Made by a program: the position numbers and the translations under genes
Notes under the pieces: model-generated
Told to the model about the DNA's origin: nothing
Database searches by the model: none
The model's input: the letters and a program-made list of their open reading frames with translations, nothing else
Part shown: one piece after another, positions 31,510-52,812 of the stretch
Layout: every line of letters begins with the position of its first letter
How positions within the stretch are numbered: the first letter of the stretch is position 1
Assembly (NCBI RefSeq): GCF_000002075.1
Contig: NW_004797426.1
Coordinates: 103,807 to 167,806 of the forward strand
Direction of reading: 5' to 3'
Source of the DNA: Aplysia californica
Lineage: Eukaryota
Length of the DNA: 64,000 bases

Positions 31510-31800
31510 CGACAAAGTCACACGTATGCTTTAAACTCAATCAAAGATATACACACTTTAAACTCAATCAAAGTCACACGCAAGCTTTAAACTCAATCAA
31601 AGACACATGCATGCTTTAAAATCAATCAAAGACACACACGCTTTAAACTCAATCAAAGATACACACACTTTAAACTCAATCAAAGATACACACGCTTTAA
31701 ACTCAATCAAAGTCACACACACGCTTTAAACTCAATCAAAGTCACACGCAAGCTTTAAACTCAATCAAAGACACACGCATGCTTTAAACACGTAAAGACA
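31510..31800. repeat. Minisatellite, ~25-29-bp unit TTTAAACTCAATCAAAGACACACRC, ~10 copies
   Basis: Seen directly. Confidence 0.9.
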
Positions 31801-34453
31801 CATACACATGCTTAAAAAAACACAGTCAAAGACAAACATGCGGACTCGTGAACACACAGGCCTATAATATTCATTCAAAAAAATAAACTAATCTCACAAA
31901 CTGACAAGAAATCTAAATCTTTGACAGATGGAAACAAATCTCCCAAGGGAACAGAGTGTGTGAATCATATGTATGTATCTGTGTGCATGAGGGTTTTTAT
32001 CACTAAAAATAATGCAAGTGCAAGACCACAGACCAGAACCCTCCCCCCCAAAACTCATCCTTATGTCCCTACAATCTCAACAACTTTCTTTGCAAAACTG
32101 CTACAAGTATACCAAAATCAAATAACTTTCTTGGCAAAACTTCTACACCAAATAACTTTCTTGGCAAAACTGCTACACCAAATTTCTACGACACGACAAA
32201 TACTTAGTGCTGCTCTCAGGAGCTGCACTGTGTCCAGGGAAAAGAAGACTGCGACTGATCAGAACACACTGACCAACAATATCATCATCGATTTACAGTA
32301 CAGCAGTCCAGCACACACATAGCAAACAGTTTTCGGGTCCCAAATTTTTTCCTTTTCTTTTTATCATATGTGTCTATTCTTCATTAAGTCATTAAGACAC
32401 AAACATACACGGCAAAATTCGTACATATGCTCGTAACAAAACAAACATTTCCGTATCCCGCCAATTTTGCTATGTGCATGCTAGATTGTAAGTTGAATCC
32501 ACAAAACAGTCTTGGAGTTGGAGATAAAGTAAGAAGGTAGAAATCTGTCTCGTGATGGTGGTACCATTATCTTTCAAAATAACCAGTACAAGAAAAGTAA
32601 GAGTGTGTTCTGGTGAGACAGAAATGTGTATGCCCAAGTGGGCCTACATTCTAACACATGGAGACGAATACAGACAAACTCATCCACGGCTCAACACAAG
32701 ATTCTAACATTACTAACATATATATATATGCCAATTTTTGCAAAAATCACTTCTTTTTTTTTTTTTAAACATAATCGATAATTGCATCGCCAAACACATT
32801 GTGTCAAAAGATGAGCTCTCTGGGATTACTGCATACGAAGTTGATGCAGAGTTATTTATTATCTATTATCATTTTTACACTGCAAAAGTTTGAATTTCAT
32901 AAAACTGGATGATAAAGTAATAAATTTTGCTTCTCCTGAACAATTTCCTAAATGGCTTTTGGTTGAGTCTTACACCCAAGGAGGCGATATATCATATACA
33001 CATGTACCAGTAAAGGTGAATACATGTATATATATGAACACACATCTACACATGCAGATGAGATACACACGCTCTAAAAAATAGTTTTGAGTGTGCACAT
33101 TCATTCTGACAAAGTAGTTTACACATTCATCCCCATGCGAATACACTTTAGTGGACCATACAAGACCACCTTTTCACACACAGCACACAAGAAACACAGA
33201 CACACATAAATACAAATGTGGACACTCATTCATACAAACAAAGCGCACACACAAACGCACACACAAAGACAGTTGTATCCTTTAACAGACACACATTTAT
33301 AGACAAAGCTCACATAAACGCTAAACACACATACGCACACACGCACAAATCACATGCTTGACTAAACACGGGCTCATATACAAACGCACTCTCTCTCACA
33401 CACACAGACACACACACACACACAAATATGCAAAGAGAAATTATATACACACACACAAACACATGTGAGGACGCACACTTGTACGCAGATGAGGATCAGT
33501 ACAAAGGAACGGTATGTTACAACAATCTCCAGCTATGTACAAAAGCCATAGTATCAGTAGCATCAGTATCATCCATCATTTTAAAACTGGGTTTTACAAA
33601 TCATCATTTAATCATATAATTGTAATAGAATAATTAAAGGAAATAATTTTTGTTACCATCATTAAAATTATCTGAGGAATATTTACATGACAACAATGGT
33701 AGGATGAACTAGTGGGCACAATAGAACCGCCATGCATTTGTACAGAACAAAATAAACACCAAAACAAAAGTGCAACGTTCCATACCTCCGGATCTGAACT
33801 CTGCACAAAATTGTAATCCCTACAACATTTACAACAAAAAAAAACAACAACCCACAAACAAACAAATAACAAACCCAGTATCATTTCCTCTTAAGCAAGA
33901 AGATCAGAACGGGGAAAAAAAAAAAAAAAAAAAAAAAAAGAACAAATATTAAACAAACTACCACCAACAAAAACTACAACAACAAAAAAAAATCTAGGGA
34001 GAAACTCCCGTGGTTGGCCTTTAAAGCTGGAAAAATCTGGGCTTTCGTGACGTCTGAGTGGCCTATCCTATGGGGAACCTCAGCACCTGCTCCACCGCCA
34101 GTGTAACATGACCGAGGGACGGTGTTTGCCGGTTTGGCCAGCGATGAGAGGAAGGATGTGGTGTTTGTGATATCGCGACATGATTTGGCTGGCATTTAAG
34201 AGAGGGGGTAGAGANNNNNNNNNNNNNNNNNNNNNNNNNNNNNNNNNNNNNNNNNNNNNNNNNNNNNNNNNNNNNNNNNNNNNNNNNNNNNNNNNNNNNN
34301 NNNNNNNNNNNNNNGAAAAAAAAAAAAAAAAAAAAAAAAAAAACAACTATTAAACAAAAATTCTGTTCCCGTGACAACACTACGGCCATACATCAATGAC
34401 TGTTGTTGGGTAAGTTGTTTTATGGCGACGCATCTTATGGCAGAGGCTGACTG

Positions 34454-36879: not shown

Positions 36880-37215
36880 TGAAAGTGTGTCATCAAGACC
36901 TACGATACTCTTAAAGAGTCGCGACCTACGCACGATTCTGAAGGTGTGTCACGATCTACAACACTGTCAAAGTGTGTCAAGACCTACGACACTCTCAAAG
37001 TGTGTCAAGACATACGACACTCTCAAAGTGTGTCAAGACCTACGACACTCTCAAAGTGTGTCAAGACCTATGATACTCTGAAAGAGTCACGACCTACACA
37101 CAACTCTGAAAGAGTGTCATGATCTACAACAACACTCTCAAAGTGTGTCAAGACCTATACTATGAAAGTGTGTCACGACATACGACACTCTGAAAGTAGG
37201 GTACGCCACGACCTA
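36880..37215. repeat. Minisatellite, ~28-bp unit GTGTGTCAAGACCTACGACACTCTCAAA, ~12 copies
   Basis: Seen directly. Confidence 0.9.
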
Positions 37216-38038: not shown

Positions 38039-38220
38039 CAGCGAGGGAGCCAAAAGTCAAGACTGGTCAGGCGAGGGAGCCAAAAGTCGAGACTGGTTAG
38101 GCGAAGGAGCCAAAAGTCGAGACTGGTTAGGCGAGGGAGCCAAAAGTCGAGACTGGTTAGGCGAAGGAGCCAAAAGTCGAGACTGGTTAGGCGAGGGAGC
38201 CAAAAGTCGAGACTGGTTCG
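38039..38220. repeat. Minisatellite, 30-bp unit GCGAGGGAGCCAAAAGTCGAGACTGGTTAG x6
   Basis: Seen directly; near-perfect copies. Confidence 0.95.
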
Positions 38221-39609
38221 GCCGCCTCCTTCAGGCCTATTTTAACACACCACAAATGAACACATCTCGAGGGAAGAGAGAAAAAAACAACAAAAAACAA
38301 AAAACTGAGATAGCAGTCACAAGACGAGATCAAAACAAATGCCCGTGGAGTTAGATTAGGAACATTCACTCTGAGATTTTTCTTCTAAAGTACAAGGCCT
38401 ACCTAAAATGCTCAATGCGCAAAAATGGGTAAAAAATCAACAATCCAAACTTGTTATTATTCAGTAATCTAATGAATCAAATGATCCTCGTCAATCTACA
38501 ATATGTTTCACTATCTCACACGAAAAAATTCACAACAAAAAACACACCTCCACCACCTAAAAAAAAAAATCCCCCAAAATCAAGACTGTCCAACATGTGC
38601 AAACAGTCTCAATCTTCACACAAACATCAACTCATATTATTATATATATCTCTGGTTGCAATAATCCCTCACTCAACACAGCAACAAACAATTTTCTCTT
38701 TAAGTCACATCAATAGTAGATTCCATCTTGTAATCATCAAGCAAAATCCTTGAACAAACTGATACAAAAATGAAAAAAAAAAAATGAACAAACAACTCCC
38801 CCAATGAAACAAAACAAAAAAACCAGAAAAACATATTTATACCATTGCACTCGTTTCTGCATAACCACAATCTGGTACCTCTCCGCCAACAGGATCAAGG
38901 TCACAGGGTCATAAGTTCTTGAATCTAGCGGGAGCTTCAGAAGGCTACCCGTCAGGATTAAGTAATTTTTTTTAAAAAGAAAAAAGAAAACCAAGACACA
39001 AAAAAACCCCAAAAGAAATTCAAATACATCATGTAAAACATAATACAGGCAGAAACAGCAAAAGAAGCTCCGGGACAAGACAGACGGAGACAGAATTTTT
39101 ATATTTCCAGGGGCTGAGGACATTTTAACAGCGACGTACGCGACAAATAGGTCGAGCTTTTGCTCTTGCGTGCAGAAGACACCAATTTGAATCTGTCCCC
39201 CCTCCCCCTCCACGGGGAAGTGTACTGATACTTTATCGAGTATCTCGTGTCTCTCTGCTGGGATACAAGATCCCATCCAGCTGGGGCTGATGGTTTCTCG
39301 GCAGACAGGACCAACCAAGAAGCCAGCCTCCAATAAGATCTAAATTGTGTCGATGGAGACGTACCGTAAAACATTTCACAACTAGAGGGCATTTTCTAGA
39401 CTGTTGTTAGATTCCCCCCCCCCCCCCCCCCTATTGTAAAGAGAATAAATTCCACAAGTGTTTCGTGGTGGTCCTCGAGGCACAAAAATCCCACACAACT
39501 CTCTGAATAGAACAAAACAAACAGCCAGAGAATGAAACATGGTGTAAGAGGTCACTGGCCAGGGGGAAGGAGGAAGGAAGGAGGAAGGATAGGTAGGGAA
39601 GGAGGGAGG

Positions 39610-39648
<39 letters not shown>

Positions 39649-40893
39649 ACAAAAAAAAGGAGTGAACCCGCGACCCCTTTGGAGTAGCTCGCACAATGGG
39701 GTCGGCTTACGATTAACTTGAAGGGGCCAAAACTTTGTATACAGGTATCAGATTAAGGTCAGTACAAATAGCAATTCAAAGAGAAACAAGAAAAATAGGG
39801 TCAACCTAGGTCATTCCATATTCAAAAAGGGGGATTACTATTTTATGGGGGGGGGGGGGGGGGGGGAACCATGACGTCTCGGACATACACAAGTGGTGCC
39901 TTCTTCGCACTGGGTGAAATTTGTGCAATGTAAAAAAAATTGTAGAAATAGGGAAAGTAGTTGTAGGTACGCATTCTTCAGTCCTTGTATATATGGAGTC
40001 AAATTGGTACTGTTCCAACAATTATAAAAAGGAAGAGAAAAATGCGGATGCATTCCAGACAGTTTTTTTCCGCCTGGATTCACCCCCGATTTTTAAGAAA
40101 AAATCTGTTTTTCATTATTATAATCATACCACCACAGTGGAAAAGCTATAGCAATATTAAGTGACAGTCTTATCACTTACACAACTCTTTGCCATATCCA
40201 CAGGCAGGAAGGGCTAGAACTCAAATGGCCGCTGAATCGTAAAGGTAAAGTAAGAGTATCACTTCCATCATACCATGTTTTTAATAGGAGCTAGTAAACC
40301 GTATAACTTATATCAGGTTCATATAATAGGACAAGGGTTTTCCATCTGTGTAAACTTGCTTATAGGGAGAATGAAGATTGATCATGGGTAACTGAAATAC
40401 TGACTTCTTCTGTACTTGTTAAATAATCATCAACAATATCCATGTTGCATACCAAGCGTTCAACAGAAACACATCTAAAATGAAAAGCTCTCAAGTTTTT
40501 AGTCTTATTTGGACACACAAACCTGAACGAAAGAAAAAATGTTGGTCGGACCTACATACAATTAAGGTTCAAGAAAAAATGGCCCCCAAGCACAAAACAA
40601 AAACAAAACAACAACCCCCCCGACCTCCCCCCCCCCCCCCAAAAAAAAGGTGAATAGGTACAGAGCGAAGAAGCGAAAAGCGAGAGCGGGGCGGTACAAT
40701 ATGATGAGCCGCCTCCACAACAGACCGCGAAATCTCTTTTGTGCGGCAGGCGATCCACCACCCTTTTGCGTCGTCCCCCCCCCCCCACCCCCTCACATTA
40801 TGCCTCGTGGTTTTTCTGCCTCTGCGCTTGGAACAAAAACATTCTCGTAAAACAAAAAAATAAATAAATAAACCGGCAGTACAAACTCTTGGG

Positions 40894-40998
40894 TTACTCC
40901 CGGGACTGATAAAACAAAATGTATCCAGATTCTGACGAGTTTTTCTGCATGTCTGATGGCACCCCATAGAATTCTTCGATTTGGCTGGCATCAATTTT
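40894..40998 (-). CDS. USP46: USP12/46 last coding exon
   Basis: [34 protein letters not shown]. Confidence 0.95.
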
Positions 40999-43900
40999 CT
41001 GAGGAGGTTTAAAAAAAAATGTTGTTTTTAAAGGCAAGAATTAGATTAAAGACAACTGCAAAAAGCAAAGAACATTAATCCTATCCATACGTCGTGTTTT
41101 ACTATCTTATCCATACAACGTGAGGAACTCTGTGCCCCCGGTTCTTGTATCTACAATAATGTCATTAAAGAATAAATAGGGTTAACATCTGTTTTTGATA
41201 TCATCATTGGAAGAATAAGGACGTATTTATATATATCTACAGTGTCATCATTGGAAGGATAAAGACGTAATTTACATCTGTGATGTCATCATTGGAAGAA
41301 TAAAGACGTATTTGTATCTTCATCATTGGAAGAATAAAGCCGTACTTACATCTATAACATCATCATCAAGGAAAAAAGCTGTACTCACATCTATAATATC
41401 ATCGTCAAAGGAATAAAGTAGTACTCACACCTACAATATCATCATCAAAGAAATTAAGTACTACTCACATCTACAATATCATCGTAAAAGAGAAAAAAGC
41501 GGTACTCACATCTACAATATCATCGTCAAAAAGCAGCCAAAAGCCGTGGCTTTTCACGATGCTGATGTAGTGACCTCGATTTGGTCCAGACCCACAATGC
41601 ACCACCACAGCCACTAGATCGTAGAGACGCTCGGGGTTGAAGGCATCGTCAGACTGAGAACAGCGAGTCACAGAAAAAAACTGTCTAGTGCATTTTTACG
41701 ATACAACAGCAACTCGATACCCTAGAATTACATAGTTCTATCTGCCCAGTACCTAGTTTTGAGAAATTTGACGTAAAAAATTGCTGAGTTTCACAACAGG
41801 TCGAGCTTAGTCGAAAGCAATTTTTAAAAATATATCTTGATGACGACTCCGAATAATCTTATGAATTTGATTGAGCAGATAGAAAATTAGCGCTGTATTC
41901 TTCATGGGTCTCAACTCAGAATTTTCAAAAAGGAGGAACTTTCTGTGGGATCGCGTCAGAAGACCATTTTCACGAGACACCCATTATTATTATACTGTTT
42001 AACCCTGGAACACTGAAAAAACCCATCAATTTACCAAAGCAAGGTTATTTAATAATATCAATTTGAGGGTCTGGAAGATAATTTCAAGGAAGAGTCACTT
42101 ACCAAATATTTACAATTTTGATTATGTACAGAAAAGTTGTGGTTTAGCGGAGGAAATGGTGGTAACGGAAATCCGCTAAATTGAGACGAGACCCATGATT
42201 CTTCCTGGGACGTGTTCTTAGGTCTGCTGGGGTAGTCAATGATAGTAAATAACAAGATGGGCCACTCAGCCAAAAAAGTGTCCGCAGGAAGTATGCTCTT
42301 TGCTTCAGATGGTGCTGCAGTCTGTTTTGAAGCTCTCTTTCGTTTTTCCANNNNNNNNNNNNNNNNNNNNNNNNNNNNNNNNNNNNNNNNNNNNNNNNNN
42401 NNNNNNNNNNNNNNNNNNNNNNNNNNNNNNNNNNNNNNNNNNNNNNNNNNNNNNNNNNNNNNNNNNNNNNNNNNNNNNNNNNNNNNNNNNNNNNNNNNNN
42501 NNNNNNNNNNNNNNNNNNNNNNNNNNNNNNNNNNNNNNNNNNNNNNNNNNNNNNNNNNNNNNNNNNNNNNNNNNNNNNNNNNNNNNNNNNNNNNNNNNNN
42601 NNNNNNNNNNNNNNNNNNNNNNNNNNNNNNNNNNNNNNNNNNNNNNNNNNNNNNNNNNNNNNNNNNNNNNNNNNNNNNNNNNNNNNNNNNNNNNNNNNNN
42701 NNNNNNNNNNNNNNNNNNNNNNNNNNNNNNNNNNNNNNNNNNNNNNNNNNNNNNNNNNNNNNNNNNNNNNNNNNNNNNNNNNNNNNNNNNNNNNNNNNNN
42801 NNNNNNNNNNNNNNNNNNNNNNNNNNNNNNNNNNNNNNNNNNNNNNNNNNNNNNNNNNNNNNNNNNNNNNNNNNNNNNNNNNNNNNNNNNNNNNNNNNNN
42901 NNNNNNNNNNNNNNNNNNNNNNNNNNNNNNNNNCCGCCTCATTTGCCATCTTTTTTAGTAGAGGGTTTTACGGCGCTCGCAACTGCATCAGGTCATACGA
43001 GCGCCAATCATTTGCCTTCTGCCTTTCCAGTGAGAGCAACATGTGTTCCTGAGATATCCCGCCAGCTATCGTGCTAGAACCCGTCTGCTGGGACATTTCA
43101 GTAACCCACTTTCAGCACTTTTTAAGGACCCCCGGGCGAATGTTGAGTTCCTGCGTGCTGTCGGCATCGCTGACCGTTTATGAAGCCACAGCGCCAGAAG
43201 AGAGAGAGAGAGAGAGTGAGAGCAAGAAGTGACAAAGTGTCCTTATGTTCAGTGAAGTGTCCCAGAAACCACATTTATTTATCACTTACCGTGTTGAAAA
43301 GGCGTAGTTCTAGGGGAAACACAACTCTGTAGGAGACCTTGATGTAGCGGTTTAAGTGCTCCATGTACTTGAAGCGTTTCAAGTGCAGGGCCAAAATCTG
43401 AGGCAATTTCTTCACTCGCATTCTGAAGAAGAGTAGAAAAAAAAAAAAAATTCAAATTAAAAACACAGTCCAAGGAAAAGAGAAGTATATCAATTAATCA
43501 ATATGAAAGAATTGTAATGTGATAGAAAAAAAAAGCCAAAGTATAGCATCACAAAATTTTGATTTTTTTTTTAATTTAAAAAATTAGCTGGCTTCAGAAA
43601 ACACATCTCTTCAAAAATAATATTATAAATTAATCTTTCCCACGACAAACAGAATATAATGCTCCTGGAACGTACTTCATAACACATCATCTCCAAGAAT
43701 CGTTCACTTAATGAAACAAAACAAAAATCTACACTTCAAAAAAAAAAAAGAAAGCTTTATATCTATAGTCTCACTTTGTATCTACACAATTCTGGCTTCA
43801 GGCGAAGAAGTAAGGGACAAAAAGAGTTGAAGACAAGATATTTAGTTTTAGTAAGAGTTTTACAAGCACTTGCAACACAATAAGGTCATATAAGTGCCGA

Positions 43901-47500: not shown

Positions 47501-50500
47501 CGAAGAACCTACTCAGTTTTAGTTTTAGTAAAAGTTTTACAGCACTCGTAACACAATAAGGTCGTATAAGTGCAGAAGATTAGAGATGTTACAAGAGAGT
47601 AACAAACACAAATAAAAAGGAGCAGAGATCAGGACGATAGATTTTTTCTAGGAAAGAAGGAGAAAACCACACCAGAACACCCGCCAACCACCCACAAGCT
47701 ACTCAGAACACAACGCACAAGACTCAAATAACACATGTACAGTTGTTTTATAAACTACTACAACCACCAAAATGACAGTGTGGGGAAGTGGGCCAAACTG
47801 CAGAACACATCCTTCAGCAGTGCAGGACACACAGAGCCCTGAGACAGGGAAATCACACACACACACGCACACACAAACACTGTATACACACACACACACA
47901 CACACACATCCTCCAGCAGCGCAGGACACACAGAGCCCTGAGACAGAGAACGTCGCCAACCCCATAAAAACACTACAAGAGAAGCTATACAAGCCAAAAG
48001 ATGAACTGAGCAGATGGCCCAGTATATGATAAATAATTGACTCCAAGTGTGATGTGACTGAAAAGAAGAAGGAGGAGGAGGAGGAGGAGGAGGAGAAGAA
48101 GAAGAGGCAAGAAGAAGAAGAAGAATTTTGAAAAAGAGGAGGAGGAGGAGGAGAAGAAGAAGAGGCAAGAAGAAGAAGAAGAGACAAGAAGAAGAAGAAA
48201 AGGCAAGAAGATAGAAGAAAAGAAAGAGGAGGAGGAAGAGGAGCCCAAGGATTCTCTTATCCTCTTGATGCCCATTGGGACACATGATGACATAAAAGAT
48301 CTGTTTTCACCTGGCAAGCTCTGTGTATTCAATTTTGGTATGACCACAACAGGCAATGAATGAATGCCTTGGTGCATCTGATACAGATTTACGATGAATT
48401 CAATTTCAATTCCCAAGCCACACACATTTAGACAGGGAAGTTAGAGCACAGGGCAAGTCAAGTCAAAGCTAAAAGAGACAATAAATAATAACAAATACAT
48501 CATTTTCTTCTTACATTGACCAATCCAAAGTAATGTTCATTGGTTGGGAACTGCTCCGAGCCAATTTCCTTCTCCAGCTGGGAAGCATTGGCCCCCTGAA
48601 GAAGATAAAAAGAGTGTGTGTCAATGTCAACAAGCCTGGAAGCATGAAACGAAACATCACAGGATGGCAAAATATATCAAAATGCACACAATGTTTATCA
48701 TAAATGACAGGAAACAATGCACATAAAAAATGTGACTTCGAACCTGTTAAACAAGGCTTGAGATGCTGAGAGTGAACCGGAAAAACTGGCCATTGAATTT
48801 CATGATGTAGGCCTATTTATATTTTTACTCCTTTTCATAAATAACAGAGGTTAGAAATTTCCCCTGACAATGTTAGCACTACAGAAAATCAACAGTGAGC
48901 TTTTCACAGTGCTATCAAAGGTAAGAAAGTGTTTGTCTTTTCTGTGGCATCATGTGAATCAGTAAGTTTTTGAAAATTTTACAAATAAACCTTTTAATTT
49001 ATTTAATTGTGCCAGATTATAAGGCTTGAAATAAATGACCAAAAAATCCTACCATTCAACTAGCAGGTTGTTTGAAATATATCTATTTAATTTTGCAAGT
49101 TAATCTATTAAAGTACTGTGTTATTTTTGGCCCTCATTTCCCTCTAAGTAGTGTGAGGCCCCGGTGATACCGGAGTCATTTATTCCTCAGGCCCAGGAAA
49201 TACTGAGGGTAGATCTGCAAATTTTTGCAGACATTTTAAAAATTGATTACTTTTGTCTTGATAAAAGTTTTAAAAGATAACATAGAATATTTTTCAGAGC
49301 CAATAGGATATATAGATTTTTTTTTAAACATGTGAGAAAAAAAAGAATGGCTTTTGATTATGTGCTTGGCTGGGAAAGTGGTTGCTGTTGTTGTAAAATG
49401 AGAATCTCTTCAAAGAAATAGTAAAATTGTATAACGTTTCATGCGGAAGTTTAATTTACACGAGGATGATCATTGGATGAAGCTATCGTAACATGTTGAC
49501 TGAGAACAAAATTTGAATTGCCTTTACAAAAACTCACAACCGACTTCAAAAGCACATTAGCAATGACAATGAAAAATTAAATTTTTGTCCAAATTGCTTA
49601 AAAATGGGCTTAAATGAAAATAAAGTAAATTCTAAGAACTATGGTTTTTAAATTTTAAAAATACATTGATAAATAAAAAAGTTATTGGTATTTTTGTTTG
49701 CAAAATGCTGGAGGACCTTCATATAGGAAAAAAATCACCAAGATGTGGGACATGTCTTGATGTATTTTGAGGAAAAACTGTTCATAAGTCAGTAATGAAT
49801 TGGAGCATATGAATGAAACTTGGTATCTCCATGTAATTTTTAGTGCCGAATCTAGTTCTGCTATCACTTTTTCGATGTCTTTTTTACTTTGGATCTTAAA
49901 GACTGATATTTGCGTGATATTTGTTGAATTGCGTGACATCATTTTTACCGCGACGCGATCACCCCTTCTAAAACTCAGTAAAGCGCTATCCGGAAAACCC
50001 GCGATGTAGTCATCGGTGACCTATTTGGTTATAGGCAGCCAATCACATGCCGCCTAGAAAATCTACTAAACGCTGAGATCTGAAATTTTACAGCAATAAA
50101 GAAGACATGTGGGGCGCTTGTGTGGTCAGCGATCAACCCGCAGCTCCGCTTAGTTTTCGAACCGCAGAGGAAAATTCACACAAACACGGCAATATCTCCG
50201 GTTCTAGTAATCGTTCGGGATTGTACGCTGGCATGTCGTTAGTTTAACTTTTCCTCTGGTTGGTTGCCGAGTTCCATTCATTTTCGTCCAGGAGTTTTCC
50301 CGTAACCATACTTAGAAGAGAGTCACTTCTGATTCCGAGCCCAAAAATTACCCCTCGCGCGGAGGCCGATTTCCGGCCCAAGGCGCAGCGGGCGATTGAA
50401 ATTGCTAAGCACATGAAATTCTTTGTCTCTTGACAAATTCAAGGAATTTTTACAGTAAGTATGAATAACTTTGACCCTCTTTCTTTCGTCTTATTTATTC

Positions 50501-52812
50501 CAGTAGTGCTCTCATGAGAAAAAACAGGCGGTCTCTTCGATATAATTATTCTAACGAGCGCCTTATTCAACCACGATGCCACACATGATATGTTATAATA
50601 GGCCTGTTGCCATAGAGTTGAAAAACTAATAAACTTTTGAAGTATGTAAAGTCGAAATTCATTATGAAAAACCAATAAAGATGAACAAAAAACGTTCAAA
50701 AAATCAATCTGAGCATGAGACGCGAGTGATACTAAAATAACACAGAGGTGTTCACTTAACAGTAACCTGGATAAAGGGTCCCACCTGTCTCACAACAACC
50801 TCAGCTTGTTATAACAACGAAATTTTCCTGTATAATTCATCATTATGACTCCCTTAACAGTAACCTTTTTCACCAACAGCAACCTGCACTGCCATGATAT
50901 GAATGACAAAATTTTTGTTTACGATTTAAAAAAAACAGCGTGAAAAATGAGAACAACTTATAATTTTAATGTGTGTTATTATATCCCCTTCCTCTCTTGT
51001 TTATCTCTTCACAACACCAGCTTAGCTTCTAGAGGTTATAGTGGACACTATATTATTCTGAGTATTGCGGAGAACAGGCTACAGGAGTTCAGTCAGTACC
51101 CTCTCGACAAGGCCCACTCTCCTTCAAGAGTCTCCAAGCTGGAAGGAAAAATCTCAGCCACTGTGTGTAGCAATGCCAATCGCCCGCTGCGCCTTGTGCC
51201 GGAAATTGGCCTCCGCGCGAGGGGTATTTTTTGGGCCGCTCGGAATCAGAAGTGACTCTCTTCTAAGTTTAGTTACGGGAAAACTCCTGGACGAAAATCA
51301 ATGAAACTCGGCAACCAACCAGAGGAAAGGTTAAACTAACGACATGCCAGCGTACAATCCCGAACGATTACTAGAACCGGNNNNNNNNNNNNNNNNNNNN
51401 NNNNNNNNNNNNNNNNNNNNNNNNNNNNNNNNNNNNNNNNNNNNNNNNNNNNNNNNNNNNNNNNNNNNNNNNNNNNNNNNNNNNNNNNNNNNNNNNNNNN
51501 NNNNNNNNNNNNNNNNNNNNNNNNNNNNNNNNNNNNNNNNNNNNNNNNNNNNNNNNNNNNNNNNNNNNNNNNNNNNNNNNNNNNNNNNNNNNNNNNNNNN
51601 NNNNNNNNNNNNNNNNNNNNNNNNNNNNNNNNNNNNNNNNNNNNNNNNNNNNNNNNNNNNNNNNNNNNNNNNNNNNNNNNNNNNNNNNNNNNNNNNNNNN
51701 NNNNNNNNNNNNNNNNNNNNNNNNNNNNNNNNNNNNNNNNNNNNNNNNNNNNNNNNNNNNNNNNNNNNNNNNNNNNNNNNNNNNNNNNNNNNNNNNNNNN
51801 NNNNNNNNNNNNNNNNNNNNNNNNNNNNNNNNNNNNNNNNNNNNNNNNNNNNNNNNNNNNNNNNNNNNNNNNNNNNNNNNNNNNNNNNNNNNNNNNNNNN
51901 NNNNNNNTTTTCCTCAAAATACATCAAAACATGTCCCACATTTTGGCGATTTTTTCCTATATGAAGGTCCTCCAACATTTTGCAAACAAAAATCCCAATA
52001 ACTTTTTTATTTATCAATGGATTTTTAATTTTTAAAAACCATAGTTCTTAGAATTTACTCTATTTTCATTTAAGTCCATTTTAAAGCAATTTGGATGAAA
52101 ATTTAATTTTTCATTGTCATTGCTACTGTGTGTAACAATACTGCCCTACGATCAAACAGTGGTTAACTTGAAAGTTGATACTACTTATGCCGTCACTTTC
52201 TAGTGTAGTAACATCAGCACACTTCATGATTAGGACTTGTGCGTGTGTGTAAGTCTAAAGAAAGTGAGGCGGAGGTGGGCAGGAGACCTTTTGAAAATTG
52301 AGTTAGCGGCAATCTTCATCAAACGGTAACCAAGGCTTCTCCCAAGGGGCAGGTTGTTTGGTAGACACCACTTCCCTGTTCAAGTCCTTTAAATTTTCAA
52401 GAAGTCCAAAAATAAGATGTGTGCTTTTTAAATGAAAGACAGCAGTCAGCAGCAGCAGCTGCAGCGGAAGAGATGTGCTTCTGATTCACAATTGAACATG
52501 TCTGCCATACCATACAAACTCTTGAGTCAGTCAGAACTAAAAGACAAGGAACACTATTGGGACAGTTGGTTAATTCTAGTGATGATCTGAATCTGCGAAT
52601 GTTTTGTTGTTTCAGCGTGTCGCGGGTAGGCTAGGTGTAGGCTACTCATACACTAAACTTAGAATACAACTCTTCTACTCTCAGATTCTACTGAACTGTG
52701 ACTGTGACAGTTCCAGTCCAGTCTCACAGTCACTGGTTCTATCGAGTCTTGGAGGAGAAAACGTAACAAAACAACATGGGGATAAAAACTTTCCAGAAAG
52801 ATCACCTACCAT
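40894..52812 (-). CDS. USP46: Ubiquitin carboxyl-terminal hydrolase USP12/USP46 ortholog, 9 coding exons, 350 aa
   Basis: Exons 52812-52810 (ATG), 48595-48515, 47464-47245, 46655-46575, 44880-44756, 44302-44142, 43422-43290, 41653-41510 and 40998-40894 join in frame (1053 nt). Contains Cys box [20 protein letters not shown], His box [14 protein letters not shown] and C-terminal [10 protein letters not shown]. Probably co-orthologous to vertebrate USP12 and USP46. Confidence 0.96.
41145..41530 (-). repeat. ~40-bp tandem repeat derived from the USP12/46 exon 8 donor junction, ~10 copies
   Basis: Minus-strand unit TTTGAYGATGATATTGTAGAT|GTGAGTAC..CTTT. Confidence 0.92.
41510..41653 (-). CDS. USP46: USP12/46 exon 8 (His box)
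   Basis: [48 protein letters not shown]; donor gtgagt at 41509. Confidence 0.96.
43290..43422 (-). CDS. USP46: USP12/46 exon 7
   Basis: [44 protein letters not shown]. Confidence 0.95.
43841..44021 (-). mobile_element. Retroposon family B copy
   Basis: Match to family B; flanked by a ~50-bp imperfect direct repeat. Confidence 0.8.
44142..44302 (-). CDS. USP46: USP12/46 exon 6
   Basis: [54 protein letters not shown]. Confidence 0.96.
44756..44880 (-). CDS. USP46: USP12/46 exon 5
   Basis: [42 protein letters not shown]. Confidence 0.94.
45985..46520 (+). mobile_element. Two RTE-type LINE 3' fragments
   Basis: 45985-46115 is the same family tail; 46260-46520 encodes [18 protein letters not shown]. 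Confidence 0.7.
46575..46655 (-). CDS. USP46: USP12/46 exon 4
   Basis: [27 protein letters not shown]. Confidence 0.95.
47245..47464 (-). CDS. USP46: USP12/46 exon 3 (catalytic Cys box)
   Basis: [25 protein letters not shown]...[11 protein letters not shown]. Confidence 0.96.
47517..47696 (-). mobile_element. Retroposon family B copy
   Basis: Match to family B; CTACTCAG direct repeat on both sides. Confidence 0.8.
48060..48243. repeat. (GAA)/(GAG) purine-rich simple repeat
   Basis: Seen directly; intronic in USP12/46. Confidence 0.9.
48515..48595 (-). CDS. USP46: USP12/46 exon 2
   Basis: [27 protein letters not shown]; ttcag acceptor, gtaaga donor. Confidence 0.94.
49558..50407 (+). mobile_element. 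Same 7-bp-TSD DNA transposon (internal deletion)
   Basis: TSD AGCACAT on both sides. Confidence 0.9.
51168..52125 (-). mobile_element. Same 7-bp-TSD DNA transposon, inverted, spanning an N gap
   Basis: TSD CTGTGTG on both sides. Confidence 0.88.

Follow-up and report, generated by a model that had tools for sequence, protein, structure and literature searches.

A minisatellite of exon-junction units carrying four spare donor sites in the last coding intron of a USP12/46 gene of Aplysia californica

The window, by which we mean the whole 64,000-nt stretch of DNA that was analysed, carries on its minus strand a USP12/46 gene, of which eight coding exons were found, from 48595 to 40894; all are bounded by AG/GT, and together they give an uninterrupted translation. 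Exon 1 was not located in the window, and the number "exon 8" is that of the preliminary description made from the sequence. For both exons flanking the array described here, the best PDB matches were human USP12/USP46 (E about 1e-24 for the penultimate and about 1e-10 for the last exon), which bears out the identity given in that description. The 3' UTR reaches 40400 or beyond, and down to there no joint is listed in it (one low-complexity patch lacked coverage). As the 511-nt intron is followed by the exon with the stop codon, the array sits in the last coding intron. The donor GT lies at 41509, next to the exon end 41510, and the acceptor AG precedes 40998; both exon ends had been placed there before, and spliced contigs join the two. 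The features of the locus, in window coordinates, are:

41510..41653, minus strand: penultimate coding exon of USP12/46, with the His box and the start of the Asp box (Pfam UCH, E 1.4e-10)
41531..41547, minus strand: exon positions -38..-22, to which unit tails in the intron are homologous, suggesting a founding unit of ~44 nt
40999..41509, minus strand: last coding intron, 511 nt, GT..AG, also skipped in spliced contigs
41128..41530, minus strand: exon-junction minisatellite of ten units of 34-44 nt, u0-u9, with u0 spanning the genuine boundary
41504..41509, minus strand: genuine 5' splice site GTGAGT, the sole donor seen in use
41471..41473, minus strand: in-frame TAG on read-through into unit 1, after 12 codons
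41463..41468, minus strand: spare donor 1 (+41), GTGAGT, following position 41469
41423..41428, minus strand: spare donor 2 (+81), GTGAGT, following position 41429
41383..41388, minus strand: spare donor 3 (+121), GTGAGT, following position 41389, its 11-mer identical to that of the genuine donor
41344..41349, minus strand: spare donor 4 (+160), GTAAGT, following position 41350, the best consensus match (8/11, genuine donor 7/11)
41169..41329, minus strand: distal subfamily u5-u8, with derived bases in common (in the tail also with u4) and without GTRAGT donor
41074..41139, minus strand: one unit of an unrelated dispersed repeat of ~66 nt, which adjoins and cuts u9
40894..40998, minus strand: last coding exon, which encodes the C-terminal 34 residues and carries the stop (USP46 residues 326-358, E 1.3e-10)

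TRF reported arrays of period 40-41 at 41332-41530 (score 256) and 41195-41353 (score 150), and ten units could be aligned, the genuine junction unit u0 included. The preliminary description had seen about ten repeats of the last ~21 nt of the exon; the number of units stands, but their exon-derived part is probably ~38 nt rather than 21. When compared with exon positions -38..-22, the tails of u0 and u4 were matched or exceeded by 0.19% and 0.02%, respectively, of 5,911 background 17-mers, the u3 tail gave a weaker result (1.6% of background), and those of u1 and u2 were not significant. GTRAGT is kept in four of the nine intronic copies (u1-u4); the reported succession of three GTGAGT and one GTAAGT at +41, +81, +121 and +160 was recovered in the sequence, as was the stop met by read-through after 12 codons (TAG at 41473-41471). 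An extra AG|GT site at window position 41431, 2 nt upstream of spare donor 2, is due to a mutation in unit 2.

An assembly artefact, which the preliminary description had named as an alternative to be exposed by long reads, is ruled out by the contigs of X8, X1, X2 and X4, which cross the array with 0 gaps and 0 other letters; a contig of X11 covers 40880-41499 with 1 other letter. A dispersed repeat family or a second gene copy was likewise ruled out, as the 386-nt array matches the genome once (927 Mb searched). No change of array length was seen in contigs of five samples, but contigs collapse alleles, X1, X2 and X4 represent one study, and the samples may be related; the label VNTR is therefore not applied here. 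In the listed tables, X13 ('Organism B') shows a single base difference and a single gap, and this near-identity makes it no cross-species test.

Other repeats were recorded in passing. The ~66-67 nt repeat of 41074-41139 occurs in very high copy and in short tandem runs elsewhere (contigs C8, C70, C736): the search gave 1,523 candidates, of which 40 were scored, and at least 70 matches at 86-95% besides the repeat itself. Further tandem arrays lie at window positions 4540-5077, 31513-31807, 36893-37197 and 38041-38222, with units of 6, 27-29, 28 and 30 nt, respectively; in the three of these four that were examined, the minus strand held no GTRAGT ladder. Minisatellites abound in this genome. 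By eye, a stretch of ~200 nt was seen twice in opposite orientation (about 50200-50420 and 51200-51380, with ~800 nt between) upstream of the mapped exons, possibly as the ends of a small transposon.

Splicing was read from assembled contigs, which drop rare isoforms, of runs whose RNA nature is a presumed label. All three spliced contigs (X10, X15 and X13, from three studies) join 41510 to 40998, skipping 511 nt with canonical ends, and no joint from any spare donor was found in the contigs of eight runs. As assembled RNA uses the first donor alone, the four spare donors are likely silent; as contigs drop rare variants, spare-donor use at a few percent would be missed, and what is shown is dominant, and not exclusive, use of the first donor. 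Low-depth unspliced intron contigs in X10, X15 and X13 and an unspliced contig in X11 may stem from pre-mRNA, a retained intron or DNA and were left out of this evidence. In u1-u4, the donor hexamers carry 1 change in 24 bases and the exon-derived 21-mers 8 in 84 (Fisher p=0.68, low power), and there is thus no sign of extra constraint on the donors; the retention of GTRAGT in all four proximal copies concerns 24 bases and is within chance. The other donors of the gene match the consensus at 6-7 of 11 positions and are without a ladder.

Splicing from any spare donor would replace the last 34 residues with 12 unrelated ones, in agreement with the truncation after 12 codons and a TAG predicted in the preliminary description. 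In an alignment, these 34 residues fall at the end of the USP46 domain that was crystallised, and the truncated enzyme would presumably lose activity. As a rule, which may hold in this animal as well, a premature stop triggers nonsense-mediated decay (NMD) if more than 50-55 nt separate it from the last junction downstream. Use of the donors at +41, +81, +121 and +160 would leave 2, 42, 82 and 121 nt, respectively, between the stop and this junction. Because the array is in the last coding intron, two of the four alternative stops fall inside the 50-55 nt rule: the distance is reached by +121 and +160, while +41 and +81 would escape, so that the truncated mRNAs cannot be called "mostly NMD-prone", as they had been.

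Other exon-junction arrays, for which the preliminary description had proposed a genome scan, are present in number. For MAGGTRAGT repeated three times at a spacing of 31-61 nt, the genome gave 413 matches and the reversed pattern 115; the single motif occurs less often than its reverse (21,499 vs 28,472), and the rate of ladders per motif is 1.9% for the donor and 0.40% for the reversed motif. Among the matches listed (the first 100 of the 413), contigs C1-C214, which both listings cover, hold 25 donor ladders, most of them at exon ends, and 9 reversed-control arrays. Merging of units shared between paralogues left 22 donor ladders. With 22 to 25 ladders, the enrichment is 3.2-3.7 fold (binomial p 0.0015-0.0003) over a control that is not matched for adjoining G+C-rich exons, and the excess may be a gene-region effect. 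These rates are per motif and not per annotated splice site. In eight of the 25 ladders, a protein match ends within about ten residues of the donor. The ladders are grouped by support as follows:

Supported, Pfam E below 1e-4: L093 (AAA), L095 (myosin head), L122 (laminin G), L125 (ETF), L127 (ABC membrane), L133 (EGF)
Supported: L100 (sodium/calcium exchanger), L126 (GM2 activator)
Weakly or paralogue-supported (5/25): L117; L101, L106 and L130 (E about 0.1); L123 (E 0.76)
Exonic by eye or G+C alone (7/25): L104, L109, L116, L124, L129, L132, L134
Not looking exonic (3/25): L092, L128, L131
Preceded by N (2/25): L094, L105

The 100 nt before the first donor had a G+C content of at least 0.48 in 18 of the 22 ladders free of N, compared with 30% of background positions, and a blind test for an acceptor and an open frame, which is weak, was positive for 17 of 25 ladders and 382 of 1000 background positions. 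The exon-derived part of the 25 ladders measures 3-34 nt and in most does not decay with distance, so that polarity is no mark of the class. The USP12/46 ladder lacks MAG and is thus outside the 413 matches, and the class is accordingly larger than this count. Paralogous genes carry related ladders at the same exon end (fibrinogen-like L101, L106 and L130; myosin L095 and L117), and some ladders must therefore be older than the gene duplications or have spread by conversion. Ladders of the 6-mer GTRAGT repeated three times were uninformative (33,398 matches, control 33,872), with many of the listed matches in simple GT/GAGT repeats. In the 30 of 53 UCH-family matches that were scanned, three of which are the USP12/46 gene, no second donor ladder was found. 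In the nearest candidate, at L045:1226-1490, a 39-nt minisatellite starting from the stop codon of another USP gene contains GTGAG motifs and no donor ladder. Many long uninterrupted kinase matches (L062-L091) are clustered on several contigs, which suggests large amplified kinase families.

On the acceptor side, TYYYYNCAGR repeated three times gave 764 matches and its control 451, on 280,319 and 195,660 single motifs, respectively, which is a 1.18 fold enrichment for a motif diluted by background matches. The matches listed (the first 100 of the 764) fall into 29 distinct places, one at a supported exon and one at a likely exon; at the other listed places of these 29, no exon was seen at the end. 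The supported ladder, L168, ends at a histidyl-tRNA synthetase exon (E 7.5e-4), and L139 ends at a likely exon with a weak P-loop match. The L168 array (L168:800-1573; contig C45, about 427,800-428,570, plus strand) has a 46-nt unit made of the intron end and the start of the synthetase exon, and the last AG is preceded by about 17 near-identical copies of it. Given how sparse these exon-linked cases are, acceptor ladders exist but look much rarer.

Within the USP12/46 array, identity to the exon unit u0 was 83, 83, 90, 80, 56, 61, 59, 60 and 56% for u1 to u9. The preliminary description had divergence rising away from the exon; identity indeed falls with distance (rank correlation rho -0.80 to -0.83), but in a step after u4 and not as a slope. 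The unit nearest to u0 is u3 (90%, compared with 83% for u1). Units u5 and u7 are 94% alike, each being 65% like u0, u5-u8 share derived bases at several columns, u4 shares their tail, and in 8 of the 36 intronic pairs the two units resemble one another by over 8 points more than they resemble u0. The array growth was simulated in a crude way (no deletions, no conversion). With copying anchored at the junction, eight or more sister pairs appeared in 0 of 3000 runs, at a median rho of -0.88; with duplication of random neighbours and the exon part held fixed, at least eight sister pairs had P=0.21 and a rho of -0.83 or lower P=0.14. A gradient as steep as the observed one arose in 14% of cases under the random and in 66% under the anchored model.

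These data support an origin of the array by duplication of the exon-intron junction, as had been proposed. In the history that we favour, a single founding duplication of ~44 nt (exon -38 to intron +6) would have placed a copy of the junction in the intron; this copy would have lost a few bases and then multiplied locally, through slippage or through unequal exchange between neighbouring units, with two groups as the outcome, a proximal one (u0-u4) and a distal one (u4 tail to u8). Protein selection would meanwhile keep the exon copy constant, and a gradient away from the exon would follow from this on its own. If, as may be inferred from F7, the spliceosome settles on the donor that lies furthest upstream, the downstream copies are free of cost, and the spare donors would at most act as fall-backs that give a truncated enzyme. 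Taking the observed joints together with the analyses above, we consider it quite likely that the four spare donors are silent and that the array is a tolerated, old repeat and no switch.

Three other readings were weighed against this one. Serial duplication always from the exon junction, with the newest copy adjoining the exon, had been offered in the preliminary description and would account for the drop of identity to u0, whose rho of -0.80 to -0.83 is not far from the -0.88 of the anchored model. The derived bases shared by u5-u8, a u3 that is nearer to u0 than u1 is, the failure of all 3000 anchored runs to produce eight sister pairs and the lack of decay with distance in the exon part of most of the 25 other ladders speak against it, and we regard it as very improbable. 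The sister relations among the distal units reject strict copying from the junction; a mixed history, with some anchored and some local events, may apply. It is also unlikely, in our judgement, that the spare donors bind U1 snRNP and thereby aid exon definition or keep the last intron from being cleaved prematurely, a protection that U1 gives to transcripts, and so help to maintain donor ladders genome-wide. This would fit with the restoration of exon inclusion by engineered U1 directed downstream of a 5' splice site (parts of PMC4822034, PMC4289686 and PMC3349419), with the moderate consensus match of the genuine donor (7 of 11 positions), and with an enrichment of 3-5 fold for donor ladders compared with 1.2 fold for acceptor-like ones; however, the other donors of the gene match equally (6-7/11) without a ladder, the spare donors show no excess conservation (p=0.68), and the motif is lost in five of the nine intronic copies.

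The remaining reading, again from the preliminary description, is a rheostat of unproductive splicing, in which regulated use of the spare donors would lead to decay of USP12/46 mRNA or to a protein whose catalytic domain would lack its last 34 residues. Four intact donors, one of them nearer to the consensus than the true donor, and an in-frame stop after 12 codons are what such a device would need, decayed isoforms would be rare in contigs, and minor use of proximal pseudo-sites is on record for 6-16 and CBS (in part of PMC1557585). Against this, all three spliced contigs use 41510, with 0 alternative joints in the contigs of eight runs; with the two proximal donors, whose counterparts are the ones used in the human precedents, the stop would be 2 and 42 nt before the junction and escape the distance rule, with the others 82 and 121 nt; the 3' UTR would lengthen by only 107-226 nt; and the donors give no constraint signal (p=0.68). 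Among the papers listed, our literature search found nothing on regulated USP12/46 splicing. A rheostat at this locus is, on this balance, quite improbable, and we retain the reading as a silent, tolerated repeat.

Neutrality alone does not explain the genome-wide enrichment of donor ladders. Selection against harmful arrays can only lower their rates, yet donor ladders are enriched and acceptor ladders barely so. We tentatively entertain, with a good deal of doubt, that the locus belongs to a set of hundreds of arrays with their origin at 5' splice sites, which would point to a duplication of DNA that is coupled to splicing or transcription and favours donors over acceptors, the donors being either a mutational hot spot for the birth of minisatellites or positively kept in ladders as U1-loading pads. 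Taken alone, the USP12/46 locus is an invertebrate example of a described class, and it agrees with first-donor selection. The donor-anchored arrays of the whole genome matter more, as they raise the question whether tandem duplications start from 5' splice sites, and hundreds of natural ladders would allow first-come donor choice to be examined.

In the 'poison' switches of alternative splicing coupled to NMD, an alternative splice brings in a premature stop. The USP12/46 locus is alike in that an alternative donor would do the same, and unlike in that no alternative junction was seen, the last-intron position puts the stop too near the junction for the distance rule with two of the four donors, and no conservation signal was found. 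Closer parallels come from minisatellites. In human F7, 6-16, CBS, LMNB2 and PDGF, the first unit spans the exon-intron boundary (this and the following from part of PMC1557585). F7, LMNB2 and PDGF combine this anatomy with use of the first donor, which for F7 was shown by mutagenesis against stronger downstream sites: the minigenes are spliced only from the functional donor that lies furthest upstream and, when this is mutated, from the next one. [quoted passage not shown] In human segmental duplications, exon-intron boundaries are changed by repeats in about 7% of genes (part of PMC2812944), and the relevant part of a catalogue of splicing-associated repeats (PMC10078293) has nothing specific to this class. 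No published genome-wide count of donor-anchored minisatellites was found, most subscription journals being outside the search.

The 37-bp VNTR of F7 intron 7 resembles the USP12/46 array in its boundary unit, its intact downstream donors and the use of the upstream one. It differs in having 4 exonic bases in the unit (USP12/46, 21-38), identical pseudo-sites and a polymorphic array, and its spare sites were shown to be silent by mutagenesis, those of USP12/46 by assembled contigs alone. The CBS intron 13 VNTR, c.1444_1467+7(16_21), with a 31-bp unit of 24 exonic and 7 intronic bases (part of PMC2630376), is mostly exon end and thus closest to the inferred 38 + 6 unit of USP12/46; unlike the latter, it has 16-21 units, is polymorphic and has two pseudo-sites in use, where none was seen at USP12/46. 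Amphioxus mirages, known from the Adh3, BflGb6, BflGb9 and PGBD5 loci, are spliced across normally and show local homogenisation, and the passages concerned describe single loci and give no genome-wide rate (PMC3087553, PMC3902484). They have been proposed as a route to intron gain, for which their repeats would be raw material, the generating mechanism being unclear (part of PMC3087553). Their cluster length varies between haplotypes, whereas the USP12/46 array is unvaried in five samples and more decayed (identity between units as low as 41%). By its organisation, the USP12/46 array is an exon-junction minisatellite of the mirage/F7-IVS7 type, a kind already described in human and lancelet genes: it has head-to-tail units of minisatellite size, a terminal unit across the boundary, a splice motif repeated in the intron and, at contig resolution (3/3), a normal mRNA made with the authentic site.
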